From assembly GCA_021146325.1 (NCBI GenBank), contig GCA_021146325.1_4321.1: a stretch of DNA of 45,885 nt; one strand, given 5' to 3'. The stretch's first letter is position 1. Each line of letters begins with the position of its first letter. The DNA comes from a phage. The notes beneath the pieces were generated by a model. It worked only from the letters and a program-made list of their open reading frames with translations, was not told the DNA's origin and did no database searches. This document shows positions 1 through 43,460 of the stretch, in pieces. The translations under genes were made by a program, and so were the position numbers.

Positions 1-64
1 CGTTGTAGAGTTCGATAACCAAAGAGACGCTTTAATATTTACCAACTCAAGGATGGCGCTTCAA

Positions 65-97
65 TAAAAAAAGCCCCGAAAGGGGCTTTATCTTTTA
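65..97 (-). terminator. rho-independent terminator downstream of ssb (hairpin AGCCCC-GAAA-GGGGCT with flanking A/T runs; may work on both strands)
   Basis: GC hairpin 72..87 followed on the minus strand by TTTTTTTATT. Confidence 0.6.
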
Positions 98-517
<420 letters not shown>

Positions 518-537
518 TTTATTTCTCTCTTAATGCT

Positions 538-557
538 GTGGCCGAAGCCCCGTTAAA
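538..557 (-). other. conserved 16-mer GCCGAAGCCCCGTTAA with weak UUCG-loop hairpin upstream of the ssb start
   Basis: identical 16-mer also at 10881..10896. Confidence 0.4.
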
Positions 558-1250: not shown

Positions 1251-1284
1251 CTGTTAATTTTGTCTTTAGCAATTAGTGCTATTT
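1239..1284 (-). promoter_or_regulatory. promoter cassette copy (IR TAGCACTAATTGCTA, 22 bp, TATCAT, CATCGAAACGAAAGAGAG leader) driving the ERF gene
   Basis: IR core 1267..1281; TAG of the motif is the stop codon of the exonuclease gene. Confidence 0.6.
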
Positions 1285-2250
1285 TAGAAGTTCTTGATAC
1301 TGCTTACTTACCCACTCAGGAATCATCAAATCTTGCTCTGTAATTCCATTACTGTATCCAGGCCACTCATCAAGTTCCTTGCACTGCTTGTAAACAGCCA
1401 GAGCCTCTAAATATTGTAAGCGCCCAATGCGAAGCTGCTCATCTGTAAGTGTGTAGCACATAGGTAAGTAGGGCTCTGTTTTCTCCTGAGCCAGAAGTCG
1501 AACCACAACCTTACGCTTTTCGTTGAATGCTTTAACAAACAAATCGCGCTGAAGTGCCATCTTACACAGGTAACCATGGTCATAAGCTGACTTACCAAAT
1601 CCTCTAGGGCTTGCGTCTGCTGTTGTTTTATAGTCAGTAATGTAAACCACTCCATTAACAACATCCACGTGGTCAAGCCGAACCTTAACGCCGCAGCCGA
1701 GAATCTCACCAAAGATTGACAGCTCTTTCTGTGCTATTGGTGAATTAATTACCGCATCGTAAGCCGGAATATTGGTCAGAACTTCTCGCATTGCGATTAC
1801 CTTGTCGTAATCTTTAGCACTAACCAGCTCCTTGCCACTAATTAACGCCTCAGCGCTCTCCTGCTGCTCAATTAACCATTTAACCGGCCAATCCTCGCCA
1901 GACTTATACATCATCTCCACAAGCTCGTTATAACCCTTCCCTGACGTGCCGGAAACGCCAACTTTTTTAAGCGCTGCCGATAAAGCTGTTTGGCTAGTAA
2001 TCAATCCTTCCACTTCGTCAAAGTCAGTAGCTCGCATGTAAGTGGAATCGAACACTTCACGTTCTAGCATCATCGTATGTCCCAAAGTGCCAAACTTTAG
2101 TGCTGCACTTGAGTTGCTGCGCTGCTTAAATTTCCATTTTGCTGGAGAAGTAGCAAGAATCTCAGCCAGCGAAGAGCCAGAGATATGGTCTTTCTCTTCG
2201 TGATAGGATTCATTTGTTAGCTCGTCGTTCGTATAAACTTTAAATGTCAT
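1279..2250 (-). CDS. PD-(D/E)XK family exonuclease (RecB/Cas4-like), recombination partner of ERF
   Basis: 323-aa ORF with VYITDYKTT D-x-K nuclease motif; sits in the exo-SSAP-SSB module. Confidence 0.65.
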   Translation of the reverse strand: MTFKVYTNDELTNESYHEEKDHISGSSLAEILATSPAKWKFKQRSNSSAALKFGTLGHTMMLEREVFDSTYMRATDFDEVEGLITSQTALSAALKKVGVSGTSGKGYNELVEMMYKSGEDWPVKWLIEQQESAEALISGKELVSAKDYDKVIAMREVLTNIPAYDAVINSPIAQKELSIFGEILGCGVKVRLDHVDVVNGVVYITDYKTTADASPRGFGKSAYDHGYLCKMALQRDLFVKAFNEKRKVVVRLLAQEKTEPYLPMCYTLTDEQLRIGRLQYLEALAVYKQCKELDEWPGYSNGITEQDLMIPEWVSKQYQELLK

Positions 2251-2253
2251 GGC

Positions 2254-2448
2254 TCAATCCTTAATTTTAACAATCTTAACAGCTTTCAAATCTTCCTCAG
2301 TGAAATATCCGGTCAGAATAGATTTTGCCTCTTTCTTGCTATCGAATCGGTCCGCTTCAGATTTGTGAACTGTATATCCAGCGGGGCCACCAAAGTAGCA
2401 ATCGCCGAACAGTGCGTTGTTTTTCTCTTTAATAATGAAGTATGGCAT
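2254..2448 (-). CDS. hypothetical protein
   Basis: 64-aa ORF; GAGAGA-rich leader upstream. Confidence 0.45.
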   Translation of the reverse strand: MPYFIIKEKNNALFGDCYFGGPAGYTVHKSEADRFDSKKEAKSILTGYFTEEDLKAVKIVKIKD

Positions 2449-2584
2449 TTCTCTATCTCTCTATTGTTGCGTGCTTTCGATTAGTTAATGATGCCGTACG
2501 CACAACGCATAGTCCAATTGGTATCACCTATTAATTAATCAAGTATACGCGTATAATTTTGTAACTACGTGTAGACATTGGCAT

Positions 2585-2880
2585 GAGTTACGTTTTTAGC
2601 CACTTAAGCCAAGCTATAGCTCAATGTAAATAGTGAGTATACCGTGTATACCGATTTTAGCGGAGGGTGCATAGGTATAGGTGCTGCGCAATACTGTATA
2701 AAATCACATGGTATAAAAATTATAAGCGGAACACTCAAGAACAGTAGTTACATGATATACAAGATATACATATATAATAATAATAATAAGAGTAAAAGGT
2801 TGATATATATAGATATTATAATGTAACTATGGCGTAAACTGGCGTAACTGGGCGTATACGATTTCCAGCGGATGCATATG
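2585..2880. repeat. AT-rich non-coding element A, homologous to element B at 28650..28935
   Basis: palindrome AGCTATAGCT at 2612..2621, (ATA)n core, near-identical 62-bp block 2766..2827 matching 28815..28879. Confidence 0.8.
2831..2860. repeat. three tandem 10-bp iteron-like repeats GGCGTAAACT / GGCGTAACTG / GGCGTATACG
   Basis: perfectly phased direct repeats read from sequence. Confidence 0.7.
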
Positions 2881-2912
2881 GTATACATGGAGTTACATTG
2901 GTTACGCGTAAA

Positions 2913-2958
2913 CAATAGCACGAATAGCTAAAACTAATACGCAAAACCCTGTATAGTT
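2913..2958 (+). promoter_or_regulatory. promoter cassette copy (IR TAGCACGAATAGCTA, 22 bp, ATAGTT) upstream of the methyltransferase gene
   Basis: IR core 2916..2930. Confidence 0.5.
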
Positions 2959-2989
2959 GGTCACACAAAAAACGAGAGAGGATTTCAAA

Positions 2990-3679
2990 ATGGTTATTTG
3001 GTCTTTATTTGATGGTTCAGGGCTGGCTGTGAAAGATTGGGCTGAGGCTTGTCACGAGTGCTACTGTTTCAACTTTGATGAGTCTGACCACGGTAGTTAC
3101 GGGGATTTAAATGCAAAATTTGAACATGAGAACATCACCTACGTTAATGCCTGGATAGATGGCAACTTCGACTTTGATGTGAAGCCTGATATCATTTTAG
3201 CGTTCCCGCCGTGTACGGATTTAGCCGTGAGCGGGTCAAGGCACTTTGAGCGAAAGCGACTGGTTAACCATAACTTCCAGATTGAAGCTGCGGAAACATG
3301 TAAAGTTGCTTTTAACTTGGCTAATAAGTACGAAGTCACATACATGATTGAGAATCCAATCAGCGTACTGTCATCACTCTGGAGAAAGCCTAATAAGACT
3401 TTCCACCCATATGAATACGGAGGCTATTTGCCGGAAGATGATTTACACCCGTTTTTTAGCGACCTAATAAAGCCAAAAGACGCATATCCCAAGAAGACAT
3501 GCATTTGGTATGGCAATGGGTTTAAATGGCCAGAGGCGATTCCTGTGGACGTTAACGATGGATTCTCTGACCAATACAAGAAGCTTGGTGGGAAGAGTAA
3601 GAAGACAAAGGTAATTCGCAGTCTAACTCCTCGCGGTTTTGCAAAAGCAGTCTTCATAGCAAATAGCACGAATAGATAA
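2990..3679 (+). CDS. DNA (cytosine-5) methyltransferase, short orphan type
   Basis: motif I LFDGSG, motif IV FPPCTDLAVSG, motif VI-like ENP, C-terminal LTPRGFAKA; ATG at 2990 has RBS GAGAGG (the ORF track began at TTG 2957). Confidence 0.7.
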   Translation: MVIWSLFDGSGLAVKDWAEACHECYCFNFDESDHGSYGDLNAKFEHENITYVNAWIDGNFDFDVKPDIILAFPPCTDLAVSGSRHFERKRLVNHNFQIEAAETCKVAFNLANKYEVTYMIENPISVLSSLWRKPNKTFHPYEYGGYLPEDDLHPFFSDLIKPKDAYPKKTCIWYGNGFKWPEAIPVDVNDGFSDQYKKLGGKSKKTKVIRSLTPRGFAKAVFIANSTNR

Positions 3680-3706
3680 AGACAAATCCCAAGGATGAGA
3701 TATCAT
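3661..3706 (+). promoter_or_regulatory. promoter cassette copy (IR TAGCACGAATAGATA, 22 bp, TATCAT, CATTGAAACGAAA) overlapping the methyltransferase 3' end
   Basis: IR core 3664..3678; motif supplies codons NSTNR and the stop. Confidence 0.6.
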
Positions 3707-3717
3707 TACTCCATTGA

Positions 3718-3977
<260 letters not shown>

Positions 3978-3978
<1 letters not shown>

Positions 3979-4913
3979 TGGCTCAGGGTATCTATATAGA
4001 CCTTAATGACGGAAGGAATCCAATGACAATTACCTCAGGGATGAGGGCGTTAAGCTTCGCTGGAAACTTTAACGTTAATAGTGGTGGCTTTAGTAAGACA
4101 TTCTCAATTAAGGGAAATGAAGGTGCATCACGTTTTTTAATTCCTAATAATGGTGCCTTCAGCTTCGAGCTTGACAGGGGTGTTGAGCTTTATTATATAA
4201 GTGGATTTTCATCAACACCTACATCTGGGACAATCTCAATAGGTTCAGTGAATGGATATTCTGACAGGGTCACGTCATTTTCAGGGACTGTTGTTGAGGT
4301 CTTGAGGGCATCAAGCGGCCATGGCATATACGTTGCTGATAGTAGTGATTTTGCATCAATAACAACTGCTGACAGGTTGCTAGTATGCAAGTACTCTAAA
4401 AGGGTAACTTTTACAGGTTCATTCAATCTCCCTATTTATGGAATACCGTTCGGTAAGTGGGATAATGGTGGAGTTTCAGTTGAGTACAACGGAAGCAACC
4501 AGCTTATTTGCACAAACATAAACACAGTAAATACTGGGAACACTCCTGGAACTGTTACACTTGACTTGCTAATATTTCAGTTGGTTACACCAACGCCTGG
4601 GCCTGGCATAAACATTTTCAACTCTAACAATGTTTGCACATTCTCAACATTGACAAGACCATTGGTTGTGTCTGGATTTATAAGTCTGTCAGGAAGCAAT
4701 CAATACATAGGTAGTTCATACTTCCCAATACTTAGATGTGGGTTTAACACAAGGGCGATACGTGCTTACAAGGAGTTGCGAAATAAGGGAATTGTTATGT
4801 CCGGTGGATACGTTAGATCTGGTACTGGATCAAGGATTTTGAGATACGTTATTGGTAATAGACCAGATGTAACCATATCAACTCCATTGCCATACTTGCC
4901 TGATATGTATTAA
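3978..4913 (+). CDS. hypothetical Gly/Ser/Thr-rich protein of unknown function
   Basis: 312-aa ORF from ATG 3978 (RBS AAGGAG); opposite strand to the tail module. Confidence 0.55.
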
Positions 4914-4915
4914 AG

Positions 4916-4941
4916 ATAAAGCCCCTTTCGGGGCTTTTATG
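4916..4941. terminator. bidirectional rho-independent terminator (GCCCC-TTTC-GGGGC)
   Basis: hairpin 4921..4934 with T-run on plus and A-run upstream; between convergent genes. Confidence 0.7.
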
Positions 4942-14861: not shown

Positions 14862-14907
14862 ACTATACAGCAATCCGCGACTTAGCCTTTAACAAAAAGT
14901 GCTATCA
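14862..14907 (-). promoter_or_regulatory. promoter cassette copy (IR TAGCACTTTTTGTTA, 22 bp, TATAGT, CATCGAAAAGAAA)
   Basis: IR core 14890..14904. Confidence 0.55.
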
Positions 14908-22738: not shown

Positions 22739-22784
22739 CTATAAGCCATCCTTGGCGGCGCGTCTTTAGCAAAACGTGCTATTT
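22739..22784 (-). promoter_or_regulatory. promoter cassette copy (IR TAGCACGTTTTGCTA, 22 bp, TTATAG)
   Basis: IR core 22767..22781; its TAG is the TerL stop codon. Confidence 0.55.
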
Positions 22785-24398
22785 GATGCCAGCGAGGCGC
22801 ATCATCCTCGATTTAGGGTCTTCTGCAATGTTCAGTACCAGGTTGACAGCCATTGTCAAACAGTCTATCTGGTCATCGTGAACATGTGAATCATCTGCCG
22901 TGAATGCCGCAATCTCCGTTAGCAAGCCATTAAGCCAAGTAGCAGACTCCGGAAGGATTACGTTACCAGCTTTAATCTGCGGCAATGCACTCATTACGCG
23001 AGTCAGCTTATCGTTATCCGGAACGTACGGCTCGATAGGCGTTCGCATAACCCTTCCGGCTGATTGAATCAGGCCAATACCAGAGGCTTTCTTCTCGATG
23101 ATGATTTTACGAAGGATGCCATCTATCTGATTGGATGCCCTAGCCATCTTCTCGAAATCCAATAACTCAGCCTCGAGCTCAGGAGCTTCAAATTTACCGC
23201 GCCGCTGGTCAAGAAGATAAATCTTCCCATCCTTATAACCCCATAGCTGCATGACGCTAAAGTCGCTGTAACTTTTGGTTGTCATCGCAGTATCAAGGAC
23301 CATAAACCTGTAATCGTACTTAGCTGGCGGTCGCAGAGTGTCGCTAATGCGTTGAAGCCAGTCTACGTTAATCAGGTTGCCGCCAAGTGCTACTGGTTCT
23401 TGCTGATACTGGCTAAGGAATGTATAGCTATCAGAATCCCACATTGCAACTAGGTCGTGAACAGATTCCTTGCCAGGGAAATAGCTATAGTACCTAACAC
23501 CATCACGCTCAATATATTCGCTTGATAGAACGTCATCAATGAATTGCTGCTTAATCCAGTCAGGAAGCGTGTCGACGTAATCCTCAGTTACGAGCGCCGG
23601 TATCTTAATCAAGTCGAAGCTAATACCCATACCGCCATTCATCATGAACCACGTACTATCGTTCACATGAAGGCGCTGTTGGATAGAGATAATCGGCGTC
23701 GCCTTTCCTTTTACGGAGCTCGCCCTACGAGAGCGTATTGTATTCTTTAGCATCACGTGATTGTTAGCGCGAAAAACAGCAGAAAGCATGTCGGCTGGTT
23801 TGTCAAAATCATCTAACAGTACCGCACCACTATACGAATCGGTTATATATCCACCCCTCGCGCCTGTAATTTGGCCGCCAGTGGCTTTAGAGATTGACTC
23901 AAACCTGACCTTGCCATAGTCATCCAGGACCTGTAGCTCATCATCCTTACACGTACCAAACTTACATGGGAACAACTCCTGGAACTCAACAGACTTAATT
24001 AAGTCGCGCACACGCTTGGAGTTACGCTTAACCAGTGAGTCAGCATACGATATATTCAGGTTCCTTACCTTTCTCAACTTAACCATTGAGTAGGCTGGGA
24101 AGTGAATTGAGGCAATCTCTGTTTTTCCGCTACCAGGTGCTATGTTGATGATGGTATCTTTACGCTCACCCGCAATAATCTCATCAATGATTCTGCAAAG
24201 GTATTTATGATGCCAGTTTGGGATGTACCGCTCTCCCTGAGTTACCTGGAACCACACTCGCAAGAATCCCTCGAAGCTATGAGTGGATATCGCCTTAACC
24301 GCCATCTTTTCTGCTGGCGTCATTTCCTCCCAAACTAAATTAGCCATAATTTCACCAATCCAACCATCACGCCAATTAAGAATCCAGTTGTGAAGCAT
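22779..24398 (-). CDS. terminase large subunit
   Basis: 539-aa ORF with ATPase-like N-terminal region, at the head of the morphogenesis block. Confidence 0.85.
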   Translation of the reverse strand: MLHNWILNWRDGWIGEIMANLVWEEMTPAEKMAVKAISTHSFEGFLRVWFQVTQGERYIPNWHHKYLCRIIDEIIAGERKDTIINIAPGSGKTEIASIHFPAYSMVKLRKVRNLNISYADSLVKRNSKRVRDLIKSVEFQELFPCKFGTCKDDELQVLDDYGKVRFESISKATGGQITGARGGYITDSYSGAVLLDDFDKPADMLSAVFRANNHVMLKNTIRSRRASSVKGKATPIISIQQRLHVNDSTWFMMNGGMGISFDLIKIPALVTEDYVDTLPDWIKQQFIDDVLSSEYIERDGVRYYSYFPGKESVHDLVAMWDSDSYTFLSQYQQEPVALGGNLINVDWLQRISDTLRPPAKYDYRFMVLDTAMTTKSYSDFSVMQLWGYKDGKIYLLDQRRGKFEAPELEAELLDFEKMARASNQIDGILRKIIIEKKASGIGLIQSAGRVMRTPIEPYVPDNDKLTRVMSALPQIKAGNVILPESATWLNGLLTEIAAFTADDSHVHDDQIDCLTMAVNLVLNIAEDPKSRMMRLAGIK

Positions 24399-26538: not shown

Positions 26539-26584
26539 ATTATATGGCATCCATGCCTTTGGTGTTTAGCTATTCGTGCTGTTT
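26539..26584 (-). promoter_or_regulatory. promoter cassette copy (degenerate IR CAGCACGAATAGCTA, 22 bp, TATAAT)
   Basis: IR core 26567..26581. Confidence 0.45.
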
Positions 26585-26706
26585 ATTTTATCTTCACGCT
26601 CCTTCCATAGATTCATCAGCTCGAAGTACATCATGGCAACCTCGCCAGTCTTAGCCTCATCCATCATCCGTTTAGCCCACTGGCTTGGTGTTTCGTAGTT
26701 ATCCAT
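26566..26706 (-). CDS. small hypothetical protein ending INSTNS
   Basis: 46-aa ORF not in the ORF track; last codons are supplied by the promoter motif. Confidence 0.35.
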   Translation of the reverse strand: MDNYETPSQWAKRMMDEAKTGEVAMMYFELMNLWKEREDKINSTNS

Positions 26707-27883: not shown

Positions 27884-27929
27884 ATTATGCCATCCTTGGC
27901 GTCATATCGTTAGGCAAAAAGTGCTATTT
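27884..27929 (-). promoter_or_regulatory. promoter cassette copy (IR TAGCACTTTTTGCCT, 22 bp, CATAAT)
   Basis: IR core 27912..27926. Confidence 0.5.
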
Positions 27930-28935: not shown

Positions 28936-29036
28936 ACACACCATAACTTCGATAACGTGTATATCCAAATTGGCTCAGCAAGAATCAAAATCAACTTGTA
29001 TGGTAGTTCATCCACCATTTATTCACCCTCACATCA

Positions 29037-29136
29037 ATCATTGCAAATCCCGCAACAATCAAAAACATCATTGCATTCGATGCAATATTGTTATATGTGC
29101 AATAGTAAGATTAATCATTGCAATATCTGCAATAAC
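29037..29136. repeat. iteron-like array: three ATCATTGCA and four TGCAATA copies, with perfect palindrome ATTGCAT-TCG-ATGCAAT at 29070..29086
   Basis: read from sequence; directly upstream of the first rightward promoter cassette. Confidence 0.65.
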
Positions 29137-29149
29137 ATATAAATCCAAC

Positions 29150-29195
29150 GAATAGCACTTTTTGCTAAAGACATTTAGGTATTGCGGAGTTATGG
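29150..29195 (+). promoter_or_regulatory. promoter cassette copy (IR TAGCACTTTTTGCTA, 22 bp, TTATGG)
   Basis: IR core 29153..29167. Confidence 0.5.
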
Positions 29196-29613: not shown

Positions 29614-29817
29614 ATGAAACTTCTTTGCACTAACATAATTGAAGACTTTAACGACGCCTTCAATAAGGGCTCTGAATACAACGCTACCGAGTTTAAAAAT
29701 GATATGTGCCTTGTTACCGGCGAACGTCCACACAAGCATCACGACACGTTCCAGGCGCTTAAATGCCTTGATTACGTAATCATCCACGGCATCGCAACTT
29801 TTAAGGTGATTGAATAA
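29614..29817 (+). CDS. hypothetical protein
   Basis: 67-aa ORF with RBS GAGGA. Confidence 0.5.
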   Translation: MKLLCTNIIEDFNDAFNKGSEYNATEFKNDMCLVTGERPHKHHDTFQALKCLDYVIIHGIATFKVIE

Positions 29818-29981
29818 TGCTTTTACCATCTGAGATAAACTATTTCGATCTGGAAATGATTAGTGCTTACAGCGGAAAGGGTTGGCCTTGCGGGGACTGG
29901 TTTAACGAGGACCTGCTTGAGTCTCACGAGATTATGTTGAAGGCAATTGAGAAGGCCAGAAGAAATAGCACTAATTGCTAA
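29817..29981 (+). CDS. small hypothetical protein ending RRNSTNC
   Basis: 54-aa ORF; 3' end lies in the promoter motif. Confidence 0.4.
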   Translation: MLLPSEINYFDLEMISAYSGKGWPCGDWFNEDLLESHEIMLKAIEKARRNSTNC

Positions 29982-30202: not shown

Positions 30203-30591
30203 TGACTACTACGATAACCAAAAATTTCATTAGCAACGACAACAAGCTATTTAAAGCTCGCGTTAAAAAGATTCACCAGTGGGTTAACGGTGTCGCTGAG
30301 GAAGTTGAATTTGAGCAAATCAAAAAAGACGGCAAATGGATCAACCTGGAAGAACGTGGAAAATACATTAAAACCAAAACTCTTTACTGCACAAAGGTTA
30401 ACCATAAGTCTGGCGTTAAGAAAGACTTCAAAGAAGGTAAGCGATACCAGGTCAACATGCATAGCTTACTTGGTCAGTCAGCTGGATACATTTACGATGA
30501 AGATGGCAACGCCTGGCAGCTATATCGCAGCGAAGATGTTGGCTTTTATACGTTGTGTGAAACTTACCACTTTGAGGCTCAATACAAATGA
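30202..30591 (+). CDS. hypothetical protein
   Basis: 129-aa ORF. Confidence 0.5.
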   Translation: MTTTITKNFISNDNKLFKARVKKIHQWVNGVAEEVEFEQIKKDGKWINLEERGKYIKTKTLYCTKVNHKSGVKKDFKEGKRYQVNMHSLLGQSAGYIYDEDGNAWQLYRSEDVGFYTLCETYHFEAQYK

Positions 30592-30758
30592 AATTATACA
30601 TTGTAAGTGGTTGCACACACTATGATGGAAGCGAAGTGATTGCCGCTTTCGATGAAGAATTCAAAGCACAGGAGTTTAAATATAACAAAGAAATATCTTC
30701 AGAAAATCACTTTGACTACTACAAGATAGATTGCATCTTACTAAATAGCACTAATTGA
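30588..30758 (+). CDS. small hypothetical protein ending LLNSTN
   Basis: 56-aa ORF; 3' end lies in the promoter motif. Confidence 0.4.
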   Translation: MKLYIVSGCTHYDGSEVIAAFDEEFKAQEFKYNKEISSENHFDYYKIDCILLNSTN

Positions 30759-30788
30759 TAATGCATTATAAGCGGCTATTGATATAAT
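30743..30788 (+). promoter_or_regulatory. promoter cassette copy (IR TAGCACTAATTGATA, 22 bp, TATAAT)
   Basis: IR core 30746..30760. Confidence 0.55.
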
Positions 30789-30817: not shown

Positions 30818-32401
30818 ATGTTTGATTTCAACGAAGATAAACTATCTGTTGAGCAGATTATGGCAATCGCTGCCAATGACAACCTACCACCGCTTCGCGT
30901 GGCTATTAATGCCAATGGCTATCGACAGTCTCAATCGTTCTGGAAAGCACCTGTCGAGATTGATACAGGTAATGATAAGTATCCAGTAATCTCACTCGGT
31001 AATGATATTGATGTTGTTGGTAAGCTATCGGCTAATATCGCTCGCTCGGTTCAGTTCCCTGAGTCGTCAGCTTACATGCACTTTCTTGGTTGTGTTTCTG
31101 CTGCAATGCTTGGGCGTTTTACTGTCGAGTATCATGGAACCCAACAGCCAACATCTTTGTACGTGGTAACAAGTCAGCCGCCTTCAACTGGTAAATCAGC
31201 CATTAACTCGCTATCAATTGCGCCGATGATTGCTGAGACTGAGCGGTTGAATGAAGTACGTAAACGTGATCGAAAAAAGATTATGGCTAAACTGTCCGCT
31301 CTGGCTAAAGAGATGAAGCAGGAAAAATCACCTTCTGAAATGGCTTCACTTTTTGAGGAGAAGGAGGATTTAGAGGAGAAGCTCGAGAAGCTATGCGATA
31401 TAGTATTCCCTGTCTCCGATACTACTCCGGAAGGTCTTGCGCGAATCAACAATCGCCAGGGTAGTTTTGCGGTAATCTCTGATGAGGCTACTAGCGTCAA
31501 CTCACTGTTAGGCATGACTTACGGTGATGGCTCGAAGAAAACGAACAGCGAGCTCGTGCTGAAAGCATGGGATGCAGGTAATGTGTCAATTGCCCGTGCG
31601 AACGCAGAAAATAACATGAGCTTTGTGGCTATGGGATGCATCTCCGTAATTGCTCAGGATGAAACAATCAATGCCATTATGAATGCTGGTGCGCGTGGTA
31701 TTGGTGTATCTGAGCGTTTCCTTCTGGTGCGTGAAAAATCATTTCTTGGCGACCGTGTATTTGTTGATGAAAATGGTGATTCAACCTATGAGGCTATTGA
31801 TGGCGGCCTGAAAGCAGACTATTTCCGTCTTGTTCATGAGATTATGAATGAAGTTGAAGTGAAACTTACTGTAAGCGCGTCATCAATGCGTTACCTTAAC
31901 CGCGCTCGTCAAGAGATGGAGCCTCATCTTGGTGATGGTGGCAAGTATTCTCACACAATGTTGCGCGGTGCTCTTGGTAAGTTTGATAAGCAAGCAATCC
32001 GCATCGCTTCTGTTCTGCACGTAATTCGTAACTGGTTCTCACCAGCCGGATCCAGCCCTCAAAAGTCAAGAGAGATTGAACTGGATACAATGCAGGAAGC
32101 GGTTATGATTTTCAACGAACTAAGCAAGACTTATTTATCATCCGCTAGTGCTGCTGGTCATGCTGGTGACAATGCCGAGATGAACAAGCTGGTTGATATC
32201 CTGATTAAGCAGGGCAAGAATGGTAAAGGTGTTGTTGGTGTTCGCTCGTTGTATGAGGCTGCACGCAAGGTTAAACCTTTTGAAGGTCAGGCTGGAATTA
32301 TGACTCGCATTAAGGACCACTTGATTCCTATGCTTGATGAGAAAAACTACACATGCCTGATTGGTGATAAAATTTACATTAATCCACGATTGCTGGGGTA
32401 A
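30818..32401 (+). CDS. P-loop NTPase-like protein of unknown function, possibly replication-associated
   Basis: 527-aa ORF with Walker A-like SQPPSTGKSA. Confidence 0.5.
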   Translation: MFDFNEDKLSVEQIMAIAANDNLPPLRVAINANGYRQSQSFWKAPVEIDTGNDKYPVISLGNDIDVVGKLSANIARSVQFPESSAYMHFLGCVSAAMLGRFTVEYHGTQQPTSLYVVTSQPPSTGKSAINSLSIAPMIAETERLNEVRKRDRKKIMAKLSALAKEMKQEKSPSEMASLFEEKEDLEEKLEKLCDIVFPVSDTTPEGLARINNRQGSFAVISDEATSVNSLLGMTYGDGSKKTNSELVLKAWDAGNVSIARANAENNMSFVAMGCISVIAQDETINAIMNAGARGIGVSERFLLVREKSFLGDRVFVDENGDSTYEAIDGGLKADYFRLVHEIMNEVEVKLTVSASSMRYLNRARQEMEPHLGDGGKYSHTMLRGALGKFDKQAIRIASVLHVIRNWFSPAGSSPQKSREIELDTMQEAVMIFNELSKTYLSSASAAGHAGDNAEMNKLVDILIKQGKNGKGVVGVRSLYEAARKVKPFEGQAGIMTRIKDHLIPMLDEKNYTCLIGDKIYINPRLLG

Positions 32402-34168: not shown

Positions 34169-34214
34169 ATTATGCCGCATCTCTACGGCGATTGTTTAGC
34201 AATTCGTGCTATTG
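34169..34214 (-). promoter_or_regulatory. promoter cassette copy (perfect IR TAGCACGAATTGCTA, 22 bp, CATAAT, CATCGAAAAC)
   Basis: IR core 34197..34211; motif supplies the kinase C-terminus INSTNC and stop. Confidence 0.6.
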
Positions 34215-34750
34215 ATCACATCAATTACTATTTCTGTGGTTCTTTTAATATCACCTTCAATAACATCAATATCAATCTCCCTGGCGCAGACACCACTAAG
34301 ATACGACCTACTATCTCCTTCGAAAGTGTATCCATGTCGATGAAGTCTAATTAATGTAACTTCAACACCTTCATCAATTAGTGGCTTAATCTCACTCGCG
34401 AACCCACCATCAGAACAAATGTAGCATCCATCACCAAGTGATTGCGCGAGCCTTTTACCAAAAACATCATCGCCAAAAACTGGCTTCATCACTGATTCGC
34501 TAATCCAAATCATAAATTCACGAACAGTCATTCCACCAAGAAATTCGTGTGGTGATTCTTTGTACCCTCGGTCATCGTAATTATTAATAAATCCATCAAA
34601 CTCATCGCTTGATAGTATTCCTTTTGCAACATTAAACATTGGTGACTTGAATGAAACCTTATCCTTGCAAATTCCAAGATTAACAATGATATCTGCAACT
34701 GTATCTTTTCCAGCACCAGGGGGTGCATTAATGATGATTAACTTTTTCAT
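34196..34750 (-). CDS. P-loop nucleotide or polynucleotide kinase (dNMP kinase-like)
   Basis: N-terminus MKKLIIINAPPGAGKDT resembles T4 dNMP kinase; start taken at Met 17 of the ORF-track ORF. Confidence 0.6.
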   Translation of the reverse strand: MKKLIIINAPPGAGKDTVADIIVNLGICKDKVSFKSPMFNVAKGILSSDEFDGFINNYDDRGYKESPHEFLGGMTVREFMIWISESVMKPVFGDDVFGKRLAQSLGDGCYICSDGGFASEIKPLIDEGVEVTLIRLHRHGYTFEGDSRSYLSGVCAREIDIDVIEGDIKRTTEIVIDVINSTNC

Positions 34751-34751
34751 T

Positions 34752-35225
34752 TTATTCTCCGTGAGATTCGCAGTCTTTTGGTAATTCTTTATATTCACAA
34801 ACTGACATTACAGTATATCCGCAATTCCTTAGGTGACTGATAACATTAGGATTATCCTCAAAGATTATCACACTTGCTTTGTCACCATTACACAAATCAT
34901 TTAGCCACATCTCTTTAATGATATAGTCATTTCTGTTATCCAATCTACTCCTCATATATATTCCATCATAATTAATATTATTATACTGAAGCCATTCAAG
35001 CGTCATACATTCGACTTCGTCACTTCTTGAAGTCATGATGTAAACTGGCGATAACTCAGCTAACGCATTCATCATGTTTATCATTGGAATTATAGGTGAA
35101 TCTCCAGAACAGGCTCTATTGTAATCACCCCAACTTGAAGTCAAGTGAAGGTCACTAGATGGTAAGAGGTAGCTTCTATGTTCATTGTTAGCAATAGTTC
35201 CATCAATATCAAACACGTAAATCAT
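34752..35225 (-). CDS. HAD-superfamily phosphatase
   Basis: motif I VFDIDGTI at the N-terminus; paired with the kinase gene. Confidence 0.6.
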   Translation of the reverse strand: MIYVFDIDGTIANNEHRSYLLPSSDLHLTSSWGDYNRACSGDSPIIPMINMMNALAELSPVYIMTSRSDEVECMTLEWLQYNNINYDGIYMRSRLDNRNDYIIKEMWLNDLCNGDKASVIIFEDNPNVISHLRNCGYTVMSVCEYKELPKDCESHGE

Positions 35226-35255: not shown

Positions 35256-35301
35256 ATTTTGCCTCAATCCTTTGAGGCTTTATTAACAAAAAGTGCTACT
35301 T
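35256..35301 (-). promoter_or_regulatory. promoter cassette copy (IR TAGCACTTTTTGTTA, 22 bp, CAAAAT)
   Basis: IR core 35284..35298. Confidence 0.45.
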
Positions 35302-36433
35302 AGAACATCTCAGGGCGACAAATAAATCGACCAACCTCACCAAAACGCTTATGGTAAACGATTACCGCTGCTTGACGCATTGAGCGCCATCCTCCATTAG
35401 CTGAGTAGGCATCTGGCGCGCCAAGCTGACCATGAACTTCATCGATACCCAGGTTTGTTTCTGTAATTTTCTGACTATGCCAGTGGCCCGAGTGTGTATA
35501 GACATATTCGCTGTTACCGAATAGTTTACGAAAGTCTGTAGCCATTACTGTAAGTCGAGTTTCAGCTTTTCGCATCTGGTGACCATGAGTATAACCAATC
35601 AATGTTGAGCCGAAGCTTGTCATCAGCATTGCTGCTGGGCTTACGTCGACAGTAATTCGCTCCTCGTCTTCATAGAATGCCGCCAATGCTGCACGCAACC
35701 AAACCATCCCAGCTTCGTCGTGATTTCCACTTATTACTTTAATATCAATGATTTGGTGCTTCTCAAGCATCCTTGAAACCGCACGACGCACTGAGCGGAT
35801 TGCTACGTAAACCAATTTAGCATAGCGACTGTCGCTGTCTAAGATATGTCCTGATGCTGGTGTTTTAGCCTCTAGAGAGTCGTAATGCAGAAAATCACCC
35901 CCCAAAACTAATGTCGCATTTCTTGATTTAGGAGCCTTATCTACAGCATAATCAAAGAAGCTATTCATTACCTTCTCTGCTGTTGCAGTGTCGTAGTTTT
36001 CACCGCACTCATGCTTATGAGCCATTGCGCCAATGTGAAGGTCGAAAACAGGATACATAGCCATAGTGTCATCGTCAAAATCAATGTCTGGGCACTCGCT
36101 GGCAATTGCCTTTGGTAAATCAGAACAGAAGGCTTCACGCGCTTGCTCAAGCAGAATCTCAAGGCGTTCATTATCAACGCTTGTCTTAACCCACCGGATT
36201 TTCTCATTCCCTTCCGCATCAATCATGGTAGAAGTGCCTTTTACCATGTATCCATCTGGCACTAGCTTCTTGATACCTTCATTACCATGCCCAACACCAC
36301 TCTTGGCTAACTTGCTGCGACGAAGCTCAACGTTGCGAATGTTCATGCCGTACTTCTCTGCAATTGCCTTGTTAGTCAGGCCATTCTTCAATTCTTCAGT
36401 TAACTGTTCATTTGTAATCTTTGCTACTGCCAT
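35300..36433 (-). CDS. calcineurin-like metallophosphoesterase with N-terminal HTH-like segment
   Basis: motifs DLH, GGDFLHYD, GNHDE, GHQ, GHWH; N-terminal LTNKAIAEKYGMNIRNVELRR. Confidence 0.65.
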   Translation of the reverse strand: MAVAKITNEQLTEELKNGLTNKAIAEKYGMNIRNVELRRSKLAKSGVGHGNEGIKKLVPDGYMVKGTSTMIDAEGNEKIRWVKTSVDNERLEILLEQAREAFCSDLPKAIASECPDIDFDDDTMAMYPVFDLHIGAMAHKHECGENYDTATAEKVMNSFFDYAVDKAPKSRNATLVLGGDFLHYDSLEAKTPASGHILDSDSRYAKLVYVAIRSVRRAVSRMLEKHQIIDIKVISGNHDEAGMVWLRAALAAFYEDEERITVDVSPAAMLMTSFGSTLIGYTHGHQMRKAETRLTVMATDFRKLFGNSEYVYTHSGHWHSQKITETNLGIDEVHGQLGAPDAYSANGGWRSMRQAAVIVYHKRFGEVGRFICRPEMF

Positions 36434-36514: not shown

Positions 36515-36766
36515 TCATACAACCTCTTTCAGCCAGTAATCAATTAAATCAGCACTAATTGCTAATTTTTGGTCCAGGTCTGTCATGCACAGATTACCGC
36601 ACGCTGGAGAGTAGTAAATCTGTACCCATTTACCGTCCTTCGTCTTCGCGTTAACATCCACATAGTCAGGTGGAAACCAGTCATCAATAGGTATCGCTCT
36701 AAACTTCTTCCCACTATCACTATGCACTAAATTATAATGCTCAGGCTGAAAATCTAATCCCAACAT
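36515..36766 (-). CDS. hypothetical protein
   Basis: 83-aa ORF. Confidence 0.45.
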   Translation of the reverse strand: MLGLDFQPEHYNLVHSDSGKKFRAIPIDDWFPPDYVDVNAKTKDGKWVQIYYSPACGNLCMTDLDQKLAISADLIDYWLKEVV

Positions 36767-37759: not shown

Positions 37760-37805
37760 ATAATACACCAACTCACCAATTCGTCTTTGGAAATTCGTGC
37801 TATTT
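37760..37805 (-). promoter_or_regulatory. promoter cassette copy (IR TAGCACGAATTTCCA, 22 bp, TATTAT, CATCGAAACGAAA)
   Basis: IR core 37788..37802; its TAG is the VRR-NUC stop codon. Confidence 0.55.
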
Positions 37806-38219
37806 TCTTATCATCTCTGCGAATGCCGCAAGAAAACCCTCTCTTCCATAAGCCACCGCTGCGAAACCGCCTGATTCACTTACGCTTTTTAGGAATGACT
37901 TTTGCTCATTGCTAACTGGGCTTGCTTGCGTTTTACCAGCCCTCTTTAACTCTATGGCGCCAAATGGATAACCGCCACGCAATGACTCAGGTATCAGAAA
38001 TAAGCAGTCTGACACACCTTTGAGAAGCCCCTTGGCTTGGTCTTTTCTTGCTTGACCAATGCTCTTTTTATTTTCGTTAATCGTGTGCCAGTAAACAATC
38101 TGCGGATAGTTGTATTTCACCCAATCAGAGCAGAAGATTTGTTCATCGTCTTCCTTTGGGCATGACTTCACCGGTCCGCCATAGAACTCGAGGTAATCAC
38201 CTTTGTCTGTGATTTTCAT
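37800..38219 (-). CDS. VRR-NUC domain nuclease
   Basis: SDCLFL...AIELK PD-(D/E)xK pattern; immediately after the helicase gene. Confidence 0.55.
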   Translation of the reverse strand: MKITDKGDYLEFYGGPVKSCPKEDDEQIFCSDWVKYNYPQIVYWHTINENKKSIGQARKDQAKGLLKGVSDCLFLIPESLRGGYPFGAIELKRAGKTQASPVSNEQKSFLKSVSESGGFAAVAYGREGFLAAFAEMIRK

Positions 38220-38220: not shown

Positions 38221-39930
38221 TCAATCCTCCATCGTAAATGATTTGTTGGCGATAATATCTTGAGACTTCTGGTTTTTACGGTGTGTGATTCTCAATGGGG
38301 CACGGAATAGATGTGCATTTGTCATAATCATTCTAGCATTACGCAATCTGCCAATTCTGAATGCCTCAGTCCTGTTATCGATGTGTGTTGAGCAGAAAGC
38401 CTTCCATTTAACAGAGCAAACGCGATGGTCTGATTCAGGGAAGAATGTTTCATAAGCTCGGAATCTGTCACCACTGTGAGCCATAACCTCATATGAAGCA
38501 ATAATCCCTGACTGGTTCTTTGTTAACCCAATCTTGAAGTCATAAACTCGCAACCAGTCCCCCTTACGATACATTTTTCCTGATAACTTAGCATTCGGGT
38601 CTATGAGCATCTCACCACAGCATCTGCAATTCTTAGCTGCAATATCATTCTTCTCACCGCATCCTTTCTTGATGATAGCTTTGGTCTGTGGGTCCGCTAT
38701 ATCTTCACACAGTCTAAACTGAAAGAAGTGCTCGCAACGCTTACCGTCAATTACATTATTACAACGCCGTGCGAACGGAGAGTTCTCATAAGAACATGCC
38801 GGGCATACCCTAGGTTCATCACCTCCTTTCCTTGATGACTTAAACTTCTGGTCCTGAACTTCTTCTATAATTGGGTCAAAGTAAAGCTCTGCCATATCGT
38901 CAAGCGTTCCGGCGAAATCGAGAACAACATGGTCTTCTTTTACCATCCCTGAATCCTTGTGTTTTTTCTTAAGAATTCGCATACCACGACCAAGCAACTG
39001 AATGAGTAGAGTAATGCTACCAACCTTCCTCAGGATAATGCTTGTATCCCACGGGGGGCAGTTTACGCCAGTTGTGAGGCAACCAATCTGAAATATGAAC
39101 TTATATTCTCCGTTAGCTGCCTTCTCAAGTATCTCTCTACGCTTCTTCTCACCAGTGGAGTTGGTAACTATCGCCCAAGTAACACCTTCTGGAAGTGCGG
39201 CTGCCGCCTCCTCGCAATGCTGTTTGCCAGCGCAAGTTACCAATGCAGCATTCCTTGTTTCCATAAACTTAGCAGCAAATCCCATTATCTTTTGTGTCAT
39301 CGTTTGGTTTTCGTGAATCTTTGCAGCCATCGCATCCATTTCTTTCTTGCTGAAGTCCTTAACCCCATCACTTCCATCAGGAGTGAACTCACTAAGGTCG
39401 TAGCCCAAATCACCAACTTCACCGTAGACAGTAGGAACAACGAACCCCAAGTCAACAAGGTAGCTGGTTGGCACTTGCATTACAGTTTTGCGCCAGAATC
39501 CACGGACATTTGGGTTACTAACTACAATGTGGTCGTTGTTACGGTACGGGCTACCAGTTAACCCAAAGATACGAAGTTCGCGACCGTACTTCTCCTTGCA
39601 TCGACGCTTCATTTCGGTAATGATTAACGTGTATTGCGCGCGACCAGTGCCAAGAAGCCCGGTATTCACACCATCCTTAAAGACCATCTCACCCTTCTTC
39701 GTGCTCATCTGCTCGAATGTTTCCTCATTCTCTTCAGCTTCTACGATATCCATATGGTCCACCATGTGGCAATTATGTGCCACGACCCCGTCAGCAATGA
39801 AATTATGGTGCTCAGGCATCTCTATATCCCAAACAAGTTCCTTGCCAATGGGTGAGATGTCTTTAATTTTGCTTGATTTTGTATTCCACGCCATTTTCCA
39901 TGTGCTTACTAATTCTCTTAAAAAACTCAT
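38221..39930 (-). CDS. SF2 helicase C-terminal gene: C-intein (53 aa) plus C-extein
   Basis: own ATG 39930 with RBS GAGGT; intein block G HNFIADGVVAHN then Cys; C-extein has helicase-like motifs GLTGSP and QLLGRGMR and zinc-finger-like Cys clusters. Confidence 0.75.
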   Translation of the reverse strand: MSFLRELVSTWKMAWNTKSSKIKDISPIGKELVWDIEMPEHHNFIADGVVAHNCHMVDHMDIVEAEENEETFEQMSTKKGEMVFKDGVNTGLLGTGRAQYTLIITEMKRRCKEKYGRELRIFGLTGSPYRNNDHIVVSNPNVRGFWRKTVMQVPTSYLVDLGFVVPTVYGEVGDLGYDLSEFTPDGSDGVKDFSKKEMDAMAAKIHENQTMTQKIMGFAAKFMETRNAALVTCAGKQHCEEAAAALPEGVTWAIVTNSTGEKKRREILEKAANGEYKFIFQIGCLTTGVNCPPWDTSIILRKVGSITLLIQLLGRGMRILKKKHKDSGMVKEDHVVLDFAGTLDDMAELYFDPIIEEVQDQKFKSSRKGGDEPRVCPACSYENSPFARRCNNVIDGKRCEHFFQFRLCEDIADPQTKAIIKKGCGEKNDIAAKNCRCCGEMLIDPNAKLSGKMYRKGDWLRVYDFKIGLTKNQSGIIASYEVMAHSGDRFRAYETFFPESDHRVCSVKWKAFCSTHIDNRTEAFRIGRLRNARMIMTNAHLFRAPLRITHRKNQKSQDIIANKSFTMED

Positions 39931-40910
39931 CTTGTGCCGACCTCGTTGTTATTGATACTGAGTAAAGCTCTCTCTTTTTCTTGCCGCCAATATAGCTTCT
40001 AACCTTAACTCCGTCATTAGCAATAAATGCTATTAGCGCATCAGCTACTGATTGAACTTCACGCCTGCTAAATGATTCGGTGTGGATTTCTACAACCCTC
40101 TTCCCTGAGCTTACAGTGCAATGACCATCATCACCAAAGTAAGCAGCCCAACCAACTGGATCAAGCTCTCTGCATATCTTTCCAATATCGTAACCATCCT
40201 TAGAATTTCCGTACTTATCAGCATATGAATCCAGAACTTTCGTACATGATGTTGATACGCAAAACCAGTTGTCGCCAAATCCAGGGTTTTTCTTCTCCCT
40301 GTATCTAGGGTTTAGTTTTGCAAACCTTTCAACCTTGCTTAGTGCGTGCTCCTTATTTCCAATATTCCAAGATGGCCTATGCGTTCCTTTTCTGTATTTT
40401 TAATCAAGCAACCATCACCAGCCATTGCCGCAAGAATGTTTTGATGTAAAAAGTCATCAACCTCCATTGATGGGTTGACGGTTGAATTATGATGCCCCGT
40501 TCTGTAATCCAAATAGAAATCGAAAGGGTTCTTAAGAAGTACGCCTAACCCCTTGCTTGAATGCGGCATAACTTTTTCACCACAGCCACACTTGCACGCA
40601 GGAGCTTTTTCGTAAATTTGTCCTGCGAGCCGTCTAGCGACAGATTCATCCCAATACAAAGTTTTCCCGCTCCGACCCAGCAGCCGTTCGAATAAAGTTT
40701 GTGTGTACTCGTGCATTTTATTTCCTCTCCGCTTTCTAATTTAATTGATGATACATGTCTTACACCATTAGTAAAAACTCTTTTTGGCTTATGATAGAAG
40801 TAATCACCAGTGCTTTCGTTTATGCATTTTATTTTATGATTGATAAGGTCTTCGCTATCAATCCTCATCATCCCTGAATCGGTGGTTATCATCGTGTCTC
40901 CAGTTAAGCA
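39772..40910 (-). mobile_element. split intein in helicase motif II: N-intein 40548..40910, endonuclease-like remnants, C-intein 39772..39930
   Basis: blocks A (CLTGDTMI), B (IKCTSTHKLY) and G (HNFIADGVVAHN-C); N-intein ends in a stop after 121 residues; intein DNA is 1139 bp, not a multiple of 3. Confidence 0.7.
39863..40740 (-). pseudogene. homing-endonuclease-like remnant split over two reading frames between the intein halves
   Basis: frame 1 ORF 40339..40716 (Cys cluster CKCGCG; ...AMAGDG...), frame 2 open 39863..40399 without a start codon (...IAFIANDG...); family not assignable by eye. Confidence 0.4.
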
Positions 40911-41354
40911 CTCATCTATCGCGATAACAGCAGGAGCATAGTCACCAAGCCCCTTAAACAAGCCGTTAGCAGCCGTTCCCTCACTAGCCACTATGGTTGG
41001 ATAGTAAACTGATTTAACGTTAAGGCCAGCGCAATAGACGCTATTACGGATGCCGAAATTACGAAGTTCCTCTGCGTTCTGGCTGATAATCTCTGACTGG
41101 CGAGATAGGACCATGTAAGGAAGGCCAAGCTGTTCCATTCGTTTCCCAATCATGGCGAGAATAATCGTCTTGCCAGCCGAAACCGATAGGTCTGCTATGA
41201 ATGGCGCTTCGTACTTGCCAATAGCCTTTCCGATTGCGTCAAATGTCACGCACTGGAATGGGTATGGTGTGATTTCTCCGAACTGATAATCATTTTGAAT
41301 CTGCTTGATTTTATCTTGGTCAAAGTTTGCTACTAAGCGTTCTACTGGAAGCAT
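40545..41354 (-). CDS. SF2 helicase N-terminal gene: N-extein (Walker A SVSAGKT ... IAIDE) plus N-intein
   Basis: 269-aa ORF; the extein junction would rebuild IAIDE-CHMV, a DECH box. Confidence 0.75.
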   Translation of the reverse strand: MLPVERLVANFDQDKIKQIQNDYQFGEITPYPFQCVTFDAIGKAIGKYEAPFIADLSVSAGKTIILAMIGKRMEQLGLPYMVLSRQSEIISQNAEELRNFGIRNSVYCAGLNVKSVYYPTIVASEGTAANGLFKGLGDYAPAVIAIDECLTGDTMITTDSGMMRIDSEDLINHKIKCINESTGDYFYHKPKRVFTNGVRHVSSIKLESGEEIKCTSTHKLYSNGCWVGAGKLCIGMNLSLDGSQDKFTKKLLRASVAVVKKLCRIQARG

Positions 41355-41394: not shown

Positions 41395-41440
41395 TATAAT
41401 AACAGCCATAGAACCCATTGTTTAACAAAAAGTGCTATTG
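41395..41440 (-). promoter_or_regulatory. promoter cassette copy (IR TAGCACTTTTTGTTA, 22 bp, ATTATA) driving the helicase gene
   Basis: IR core 41423..41437, only 14 bp from the divergent HTH gene start. Confidence 0.5.
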
Positions 41441-41450: not shown

Positions 41451-41924
41451 ATGTGTGAAATTGACAAGCGAACTATTAACGGCAATAACGGGACCGTCCG
41501 CACGCAAGACAAGAAGCAACGCAAGCGACCTTCAGGCTACTACGTATTGAAAGATGAAGTAAAGGCTGGTCTACGCGCGCGTCTGGAAATGATTCTTGAT
41601 TTCTACGGCACGAAAGCCAATATCGCCAAGCAGTTAAATGTATCTCACCAGACTGTAGAACAATGGTTTAATCGCGGGATGATTTCGGCTCGAGGGGCTC
41701 AGAGAGCGCATAATGCGTACAAGCGAAATAAGGAAGGGTTCCGAGCTACATTCTGCCGACCAGACCTGCAATTCGACGGTAACGGAAAGCCGCTAACACT
41801 TCGATGCAAGAAACGCCATATGCTTCGCGTAGTTACCGAGGCAGAACTAGCAATAAAACCACCCTGTCGACCGTGGCGCAAGAATAAGATTGCTAACGAA
41901 GCAGCACGAAAAGCTAAAGGGTAA
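41451..41924 (+). CDS. Cro/YdaS-like HTH DNA-binding protein, putative transcription regulator
   Basis: HTH GTKANIAKQLNVSHQTVEQWFNRG; basic C-terminal half. Confidence 0.55.
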   Translation: MCEIDKRTINGNNGTVRTQDKKQRKRPSGYYVLKDEVKAGLRARLEMILDFYGTKANIAKQLNVSHQTVEQWFNRGMISARGAQRAHNAYKRNKEGFRATFCRPDLQFDGNGKPLTLRCKKRHMLRVVTEAELAIKPPCRPWRKNKIANEAARKAKG

Positions 41925-43398: not shown

Positions 43399-43423
43399 GC
43401 CTGAAAGATGGTAGAATGAATTT

Positions 43424-43438
43424 TGGCAATTAGTGCTA
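43424..43438. promoter_or_regulatory. orphan copy of the IR motif (TGGCAATTAGTGCTA) just upstream of the tail fiber gene
   Basis: IR present but no correctly spaced -10 in either direction. Confidence 0.3.
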
Positions 43439-43460
43439 CTTTACAAATGGAGACTTTACA

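Follow-up and report, generated by a model that had tools for sequence, protein, structure and literature searches.

Gene 3' ends that run into a repeated, marbox-like promoter motif in a T1-like phage genome, and the NSTN tails read from it

In the promoters read by the RNA polymerase of phage T7, which are repeated along a tightly packed genome, the first bases, TAA (−17 to −15), form the stop codon of the preceding gene, an overlap that was verified for genes 1.2, 1.4, 1.5, 2, 4.2, 8 and 16. The stoperators of cluster A mycobacteriophages (the L5 gp71 sites), which belong to temperate phages, are bound by the phage repressor and block elongation, and the PeSLs of T4-type phages, as treated by Arbiol et al. 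2010, are said to be sigma-70 early promoters followed by a terminator stem-loop. The present work concerns a short repeated motif in a stretch of 45,885 nucleotides (contig GCA_021146325.1_4321.1 of GenBank assembly GCA_021146325.1; hereafter, the window), which represents all or nearly all of the genome of a T1-like siphophage (Drexlerviridae, Braunvirinae), and in which the bases of the motif either supply the stop codon of the gene upstream or are translated as a C-terminal Asn-Ser-Thr-Asn-x (NSTN-x) tail. The same motif occurs in phage Rtp, of the same family, for which Wietzorrek et al. 2006 reportedly described 10 inverted repeats, conserved and lying upstream of genes, and linked them to a putative helix-turn-helix (HTH) regulator, Rtp52; the repeats are said to have been treated as operators of a phage protein, with no tie to gene 3' ends or to the marbox, the site to which MarA, SoxS and Rob, activators of E. 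coli, bind. The class II promoters of these activators in E. coli are reportedly the subject of work by Martin et al. 1999. At such promoters a forward box overlaps the −35 region, forward sites cluster near −41 and no −35 hexamer is present (PMC10268841); the marbox of micF is centred at −41.5, with GCAC as its A site and CAAA as its B site (PMC9638938).

The marbox is described as a 20-bp asymmetric sequence, AYnGCACnnWnnRYYAAAYn, composed of an A site (GCAC) and a B site, (C/T)AAA (PMC5684230, PMC6900184), with gcactaattgctaaa as the consensus obtained by MarA chromatin immunoprecipitation sequencing (ChIP-seq; Sharma et al. 2017, PMC5684230) and GCAHWWWWTGYYAAA as a degenerate version (PMC6900184). 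A literature search with an 11-mer taken from the phage motif led to this site: the motif core, GCAC(T/G)AATTGCTAAA, is a marbox by sequence match and conforms to the asymmetric consensus, and the copies at 1266 (−) and 29964 (+) agree with the ChIP-seq consensus gcactaattgctaaa at 15 of 15 positions. The initial annotation had seen a promoter motif here without recognising the host site. With the pattern AAYAGCACKAATWGMTAA and at most two mismatches, the window has 14 copies where 0.03 would be expected, a number that 100 shuffles failed to reach, and four more (14888, 27910, 35282, 41421) are seen only by marbox consensus or matrix; 12 of the 14 are co-directional with the surrounding genes, those at 36548 and 43423 being antisense to their neighbours. 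The degenerate consensus GCAHWWWWTGYYAAA, with at most one mismatch, gives 13 matches against 1.7 expected. A weight matrix built from 28 E. coli ChIP sites alone, and used with the median E. coli score as threshold, gives 14 sites at or above that median, 12 of at least 16.7 bits and two at the maximum of 19.6 bits, compared with a mean of 0.61 sites in shuffles and three weak matches in T7; chance occurrence of the motif is ruled out by these pattern, consensus and matrix counts. Each of eight other Drexlerviridae genomes, Rtp (12 copies with at most two mismatches, upstream of genes) and T1 included, has 10-15 copies, and the same matrix finds 10-24 sites per T1-like genome. In the literature searched, which was incomplete, no paper tying marboxes to phage promoters was found, nor anything useful on promoter motifs or transcription start sites of Drexlerviridae. 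The repeated motif itself is known from Rtp, and its identity with the host marbox in a class II configuration appears to be new. The copies that meet the end of an upstream gene in the window, with matrix scores where relevant, are as follows.

3662..3679, plus strand: focal motif copy AATAGCACGAATAGATAA, read as N-S-T-N-R-stop at the end of the methyltransferase open reading frame (ORF) 2957..3679 (+) (..ANSTNR); marbox core at 3666-3680; 14.4 bits.
3701..3706, plus strand: −10-like hexamer TATCAT, 21 bp past the focal motif and 18 bp past the 20-bp marbox, followed by the leader CCATTGAAACGAAAC and ATG 3748.
1266..1283, minus strand: motif copy with GCACTAATTGCTAAA as its core, identical to the published consensus marbox; the exonuclease gene 1279..2250 (..QELLK) stops at the TAG at 1279-1281; 19.6 bits.
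22766..22783, minus strand: motif copy with core GCACGTTTTGCTAAA, a near match to the marbox of E. coli mar, CCACGTTTTGCTAAA; its TAG ends the TerL gene 22779..24398 (..AGIK).
26566..26583, minus strand: motif copy, N-S-T-N-S-stop closing ORF 26566..26706 (−) (..INSTNS).
29964..29981, plus strand: motif copy with the consensus marbox core, N-S-T-N-C-stop closing ORF 29817..29981 (+) (..RRNSTNC); 19.6 bits.
30744..30761, plus strand: motif copy AATAGCACTAATTGATAA; the DUF7336 ORF 30588..30758 (+) ends ..LLNSTN at a TGA one codon early; putative promoter for the DUF3987 gene 30818..32401.
34196..34213, minus strand: motif copy, N-S-T-N-C-stop closing the P-loop kinase-like gene 34196..34798 (−) (..INSTNC); 18.9 bits.
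35278..35300, minus strand: extra marbox AGTAGCACTTTTTGTTAAT, whose motif position 1 falls within the TAA (35300-35302) that ends the SbcD-like gene 35300..36433.
37787..37804, minus strand: motif copy whose TAG closes the VRR-NUC gene 37800..38219 (..MIRK).
41451..41924, plus strand: Cro/cI-type HTH regulator gene, homologue of Rtp52 and of T1 gp23, which reads through the copy at 41900 in the third frame.
41900..41917, plus strand: motif copy AGCAGCACGAAAAGCTAA, translated in frame b as ..AARKAKG before the stop; a hairpin and T-run terminator comes next, with CATAAT in its loop at canonical spacing.

Five ORFs of the window close with N-S-T-N-x-stop in the first frame of the motif (stops at 3679, 26566, 29981, 30758 and 34196), and the motif TAG is the stop of the exonuclease (1279), TerL (22779) and VRR-NUC (37800) genes; every coordinate and peptide that the initial annotation had given for these eight gene ends is correct. 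Its list stands and needs extending, having overlooked stops at positions −1, 0 and 9 and read-through, which are the same phenomenon: the last A of the TAA of the SbcD-like gene is position 1 of the copy at 35282, and the regulator gene runs through the copy at 41900 (..AARKAKG). As in T7, conserved promoter bases are used as the upstream stop, here TAG at 1279, 22779 and 37800 and TAA or TGA at 3679, 26566, 29981, 30758 and 34196.

The extent of this overlap was measured on eight Drexlerviridae genomes (100 motif copies) and on 120 IMG/VR loci (0.96 Mb, 304 unique cassette contexts), by taking as upstream ORF the nearest co-oriented ORF end (at least 40 aa) and random positions as control; an alternative measure, the longest ORF within 200 nt, misled for small genes and was given up for this one. 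An upstream stop falls at motif positions −1 to 16 in 71 of the 100 copies, compared with 5.1% of random positions, starting at position −1 (ten copies), 0 (six), 3 (30), 9 (one), 13 (one) or 16 (23), and stops 2-60 nt upstream of the motif are depleted (3%, versus 16% for random positions). The upstream stop also lies on the motif in 74% of the 304 IMG/VR contexts, as TAG in 125 and as TAA at position 16 in 51. Throughout the family, genes upstream of the element end on the motif almost without exception.

The box holds two stops in different frames, TAG at positions 3-5 and TAA at 16-18, and a T placed directly before it makes a further TAA with its leading A or AA, so that it can close any upstream gene with no need for a spacer. 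Frame 3 costs the protein one final Lys, Gln, Glu or Arg; frame 1 reads the box as Asn-Ser-Thr-Asn-(Cys/Ser/Arg); genes in frame 2 stop one base in or read through. In a genome as tightly packed as this one, with the cassettes set at module junctions, the preceding gene would simply reach or enter the box. The T7 promoters show that the overlap itself has precedent; in T7, however, only a stop codon overlaps, in one frame and with no shared peptide, whereas all three frames are used in the window phage, and the pentapeptide shared through one of them is an extra feature. A further difference is that T7 promoters are read by the phage RNA polymerase and those of the window phage presumably by the host polymerase with an activator. 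Stoperators and PeSLs resemble the phage motif in being many oriented short sites at junctions, often touching stops and marking mosaic boundaries, and differ from it in having neither a host activator site nor a common peptide tail. The initial annotation had proposed that promoters were inserted, or genes extended, until coding sequence ran into the regulatory element: the running of coding sequence into the element holds, and insertion and extension are not told apart by the data. In T1 the regulator gene gp23 (35979-36431, minus strand) ends ..TTNSIFS on the marbox-like AATAGCATTTTTAGTTAAA, with a terminator next; since the regulator genes of the window and of T1 each end at a copy, the gene is fused to a copy in both subfamilies, in different frames.

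The comparison of orthologues that the initial annotation had named as capable of refuting a motif-derived tail was carried out, and homologues from phages with no motif at the junction have no NSTN tail, so that the tail is derived from the motif and is not ancestral coding sequence. In the methyltransferase family (2478 homologues) the conserved core ends ...RSLTPRGFA-AV-(E/L)AN, followed by zero to three variable residues. Homologues from unrelated phages with no downstream motif, found next to DNA polymerase A and SNF2 genes or in a 148-kb myovirus, end ...EANHV, ...EANK or ...YSNQ, and only the conserved Asn is common to these and to the ANSTNR end of the window protein, its AAT being the first codon of the motif. 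The exonuclease is 78% identical to its Rtp orthologue over the full length, with QELLK as its end compared with KQYREI in Rtp, and is two codons longer, by which it reaches the TAG. Nearly all relatives of the kinase-like P-loop protein with at least 60% identity carry a motif-coded tail, mostly INSTNC (about 20 clusters), with NSTNR, NSTNY, NSTKC, DSTNC and NSTFC as variants and one exception, P0142, which ends AINNLT. More distant homologues of the same length have unrelated C-terminal sequences; that of T1 (44% identity) ends FINK on the motif TAG, and that of JulesPiccard (46% identity) ends GLPW, its TAA overlapping the motif by one base.

That the tail might be a C-terminal tag selected for degradation, localisation or interaction, the promoter having been placed so as to install it, is suggested by the occurrence of one pentapeptide at the end of five unrelated proteins of the window and of 53 IMG/VR ORFs with 46 distinct upstream sequences (tails NSTNC in 39, NSTFC in four, NSTNS in three, and others), and by its stability as INSTNC in about 20 clusters of close kinase relatives. 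The codons, however, point elsewhere. In the 24 copies translated in frame 1 in the eight genomes, the only codons used are AGC for Ser, AAT for the second Asn and TGC for Cys, and the fifth tail residue varies (Cys, Ser, Arg or stop, Tyr also occurring among the tails) just where the DNA motif is degenerate; the 76 copies outside frame 1 have the same base profile as the translated ones. From the invariance of synonymous codons and the equal conservation of untranslated copies it follows that the constraint acts on DNA, and the copy at 2914..2931, which no upstream gene overlaps, shows the motif conserved without any coding. Furthermore, the frame that yields the tail is the rarer one (24 of 100 and 53 of 304 cassettes, or approximately 17-24%) compared with the TAG frame (30 and 125, 30-41%), so that nothing suggests selection for a tag, and the same proteins lack the tail in other phages. 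A selected tag is accordingly very improbable in our estimate. The initial annotation had spoken of a hard-wired common C-terminal tag: a tail shared by several proteins is indeed present, but, in view of the minority frame and the DNA-level constraint, nothing points to a function as a tag. As far as sequences allow one to judge, the NSTN-x tail is a tolerated by-product, the DNA-recognition code of a putative host factor being read as protein, with no selected tag. As a separate observation, the T-rich marbox variant GCACTTTTTGCTAAA occurs in none of the 24 translated frame-1 copies and in 13 of the 76 others (eight genomes), which could reflect a mild avoidance of the ..STFC tail, or chance.

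The motif opens a cassette of approximately 80 bp, in which it is followed by a weak AGAC(A), a −10-like hexamer, the leader CCATCGAAACGAAA and, in front of the next gene and its ATG, a ribosome-binding site. The hexamer (consensus gTATaAT) begins 21-22 bp past the motif in 78 of 92 unique copies, and this fixed spacing, together with the co-orientation with genes and the ribosome-binding site and ATG downstream, bears out the view of the motif as a promoter element. The −35 region is poor, being at best AGAC(A), a 4/6 match to TTGACA at a 16-bp spacer, and many copies lack even that. Among other explanations that were considered, an UP element was dropped, the motif having no A/T richness of that type, as was a T4 MotA box (centred at −30), for which the motif lies about 8 bp too far upstream; no RNA polymerase gene was found in the annotations of relatives that would indicate a phage-encoded single-subunit enzyme, and the cassettes have a −10 of sigma-70 type.

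The geometry is that of class II promoters of the host. Promoter-type copies are, without exception, oriented with GCAC away from the −10-like hexamer and AAA towards it; no −35 is recognisable and the −10 is canonical. The 20-bp box ends 18 bp upstream of the hexamer, and a transcription start 6-8 nt past the hexamer would, by calculation, place the centre of the box at −40.5 to −41.5. The class II marbox promoters of E. coli and Salmonella (micF, lpxC P2, lpxL P1; PMC5684230, PMC6900184, PMC10268841, PMC9638938) have the same box, forward, at −35, with a good −10, a poor −35 and a centre near −41, the value calculated for the phage sites. They differ from the phage sites in several ways: the latter belong to a virulent phage and number 10-24 per 45-50 kb, a density roughly 100-fold higher; they are closer to the consensus than most host marboxes, with an additional invariant A before GCAC; and they are fused to the stop or last codons of the upstream gene, with binding and activation in the phage predicted. 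We consider it likely that the cassette is a class II marbox promoter, with the box replacing the −35 and the tail arising as a by-product of the overlap, and use of the motif by a host factor is held to be probable. A monomer of Rob, which is produced constitutively, or of stress-induced MarA or SoxS would bind the box and recruit sigma-70 RNA polymerase to the good −10, and the next gene block would then be fired. The wider proposal, that T1-like phages have wired most of their transcription units, through 10-24 promoters per genome, to host MarA, SoxS or Rob by means of class II marboxes, is one that we favour slightly. An activator of the MarA/SoxS type encoded by the phage itself was considered and set aside, tblastn having found no MarA/SoxS homologue in the phage (best E value 0.49, with MarA and SoxS queries that may contain small errors).

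The regulator gene at 41451..41924 offers another candidate, its Cro/cI-type HTH product binding as a dimer to TAGCA-N5-TGCTA as an operator and switching the promoters on or off, the likeness to the marbox then being coincidence or mimicry. The motif does form an inverted repeat, as reportedly also recognised in Rtp, its 5-bp arms being centred 10 bp apart, and its two-fold symmetry is that of the arms; but the near-invariant C8 is paired with T12, and the conserved 3' AAA has no counterpart on the 5' side. The strict orientation with respect to the −10 would be needless for a symmetric operator, and a match to the host consensus at 15 of 15 positions, in class II position and orientation, would be very unlikely for an unrelated one. 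The regulator is a core gene of the family (831 phage records), and the window protein and T1 gp23 (54% overall identity) share a conserved HTH region, with Pfam matches to Cro/CI-type HTH families, all of them below the curated cut-offs. It is encoded by every Drexlerviridae genome examined, each of which, Rtp and T1 included, also has 10-15 motif copies, and every contig on which the exact 19-mer was found has, if complete, a length of 42-53 kb, as in T1-like phages. Motif and regulator thus co-occur throughout, which is uninformative because all the hosts also have MarA, SoxS and Rob: the regulator being present in all Drexlerviridae and all hosts being Enterobacterales, distribution does not separate the host factor from the phage one. 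That the motif is an operator of the phage regulator is, on these grounds, judged unlikely, and binding by the regulator and by a host factor are not mutually exclusive.

The cassettes also coincide with mosaic junctions. When the window is aligned with seven relatives by BLAST, 43 of 248 alignment endpoints fall in cassettes, which make up 3.1% of the genome (7.8 expected; none of 2000 permutations reached 43, the null being random positions and not gene boundaries in general), and many lie at the exact edge of the motif (offsets 0, ±1-3 and 18). At the junction at 30744, before the DUF3987 gene, the upstream genes differ in TR2, AN_ECEAS, Rtp and JulesPiccard, and each closes on the motif. 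In TR2 (19365-19844) and AN_ECEAS (36850-37347), genes of free-standing HNH endonucleases lie directly upstream of cassettes and close ..NHGK on the motif TAG; their insertion directly at cassettes suggests that homing endonuclease insertions use these junctions. It might thus be proposed that the cassettes act chiefly as modules of recombination or mobility, in the manner of the T4-type PeSLs, the overlap being a scar of shuffling instead of an effect of packing, a view that would add to promoter function and draws on the concentration of breakpoints at cassettes and often right at the motif edge, on the exchanged but motif-ended genes at 30744 and on the endonuclease genes stopping at the motif TAG. 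However, alignments run to the edge of any conserved island, so that a difference in one flank is enough to place endpoints at the motif edge, and 18 bp of identity is short for homologous recombination. The strong stem-loops counted in favour of the proposal occur in only five of 14 cassettes; set beside PeSLs, the junction enrichment is strong, and the stem-loop encloses the −10 rather than following the promoter. As the main role of the cassettes, mobility appears doubtful.

Several points weigh against the reading of the cassettes as class II marbox promoters. The placement at −41 depends on an inferred −10. The motif is tighter and more palindromic (TAGCA-N5-TGCTA) than E. coli marboxes, which would suit a dimeric HTH protein of the phage, and the base before GCAC, an n in the marbox consensus, is always A; the presence of the regulator gene in every genome of the family examined points the same way. 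The copies counted over related genomes are non-independent events, and the null used for the alignment endpoints is of the limited kind stated above. A strong marbox with no −10, that at 43423, is a misfit to the promoter model. Finally, constitutive activation is not guaranteed, as Rob is reported to be largely sequestered and inactive (PMC5684230).

The overlap is a tidy example of a DNA-level constraint written into proteins and of promoter bases reused as stops, and for annotation it means that NSTNC-type tails, as well as terminal Lys, Gln or Glu, in Drexlerviridae proteins should not be taken for conserved protein features. To our knowledge, the organisation of transcription in T1-type phages, with host polymerase alone, has never been worked out, and consensus marboxes throughout the genome provide a concrete and cheaply testable hypothesis of dependence on Rob, MarA or SoxS. 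If it were true, phage development would be tied to the regulon behind intrinsic antibiotic resistance, with a bearing on phage-antibiotic combinations and on the bile-rich gut; phage gene expression would be tuned directly by signals that induce the three activators, among them bile salts, salicylate, oxidative stress and some antibiotics; the marbox code would even be imprinted on the C-termini of phage proteins; and the cassettes would be a set of very strong natural marbox promoters for studies of class II activation.

The remaining copies of the window are listed here.

2914..2931, plus strand: motif copy between divergent genes, ahead of the methyltransferase gene and overlapped by no upstream gene.
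14884..14902, minus strand: extra marbox GATAGCACTTTTTGTTAAA, downstream of a terminator; TATAGT and the leader CATCGAAAAGAAA come next; 17.2 bits; outside the first pattern.
27906..27928, minus strand: extra marbox-like copy AATAGCACTTTTTGCCTAA, followed by CATAAT; a remnant frame, ..LLLSGK, closes on its TAG.
29151..29168, plus strand: motif copy at the head of a rightward cluster of small genes; a possible ORF, 28970..29155, stops at its TAG.
36548..36565, plus strand: motif copy, in antisense orientation within ORF 36515..36766 (−) and lacking a −10 downstream; TR2 and Rao1 have it conserved.
40017..40034, minus strand: degenerate motif copy preceding the second helicase ORF, 38221..39930; in the window it holds the end of no upstream ORF.
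41417..41439, minus strand: extra marbox AATAGCACTTTTTGTTAAA in a divergent region, upstream of 40545..41354 (−) and next to where the regulator gene begins on the opposite strand; 17.2 bits.
43423..43440, minus strand: motif copy between the primase and tail-fibre genes, with no −10 and facing a terminator; conserved in 9/9 genomes (the window and the eight Drexlerviridae); 17.9 bits.

In Rtp, the counterpart of the copy at 43423 is also antisense, 6 nt upstream of the start codon of the lateral tail fibre gene, and faces the primase terminator.

The stem-loops (z ≤ −3.5) are those of the cassettes at 1266, 30744, 34196, 37787 and 41900, the others having none. At 1266, 30744, 37787 and 41900 the −10 hexamer is enclosed, partly by way of a conserved GGATG...CATC; at 34196 the stem-loop lies just upstream of the −10 and overlaps only the first base of the hexamer. 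Such a stem would be present in read-through transcripts only. At 41900-41960 (+) a perfect 9-bp hairpin with a T-run, an intrinsic terminator, holds CATAAT in its loop at promoter spacing, and terminator and promoter thus appear to be superimposed after the regulator gene.

With regard to gene starts, the methyltransferase ORF as listed (2957-3679, plus strand) begins at a TTG, and all homologues begin 11 codons later, with MVIWSLFDGSG, from which the true start is probably the ATG near 2990; the kinase-like gene probably starts at 34750 (184 aa) instead of 34798.

The window is approximately 88% identical to phage ES and 87% to TR2 (both over 1-20000), and 93% to AN_ECEAS (over 22000-45885). 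Its helicase, a single gene of 664 aa in Rtp, is in two parts, 40545..41354 and 38221..39930 (minus strand), with about 600 bp between them and the degenerate marbox copy at 40017 upstream of the second, an arrangement found also in AN_ECEAS and ES. A tRNA-Arg with anticodon CCT lies at 25528-25603 (−), as in other T1-like phages.

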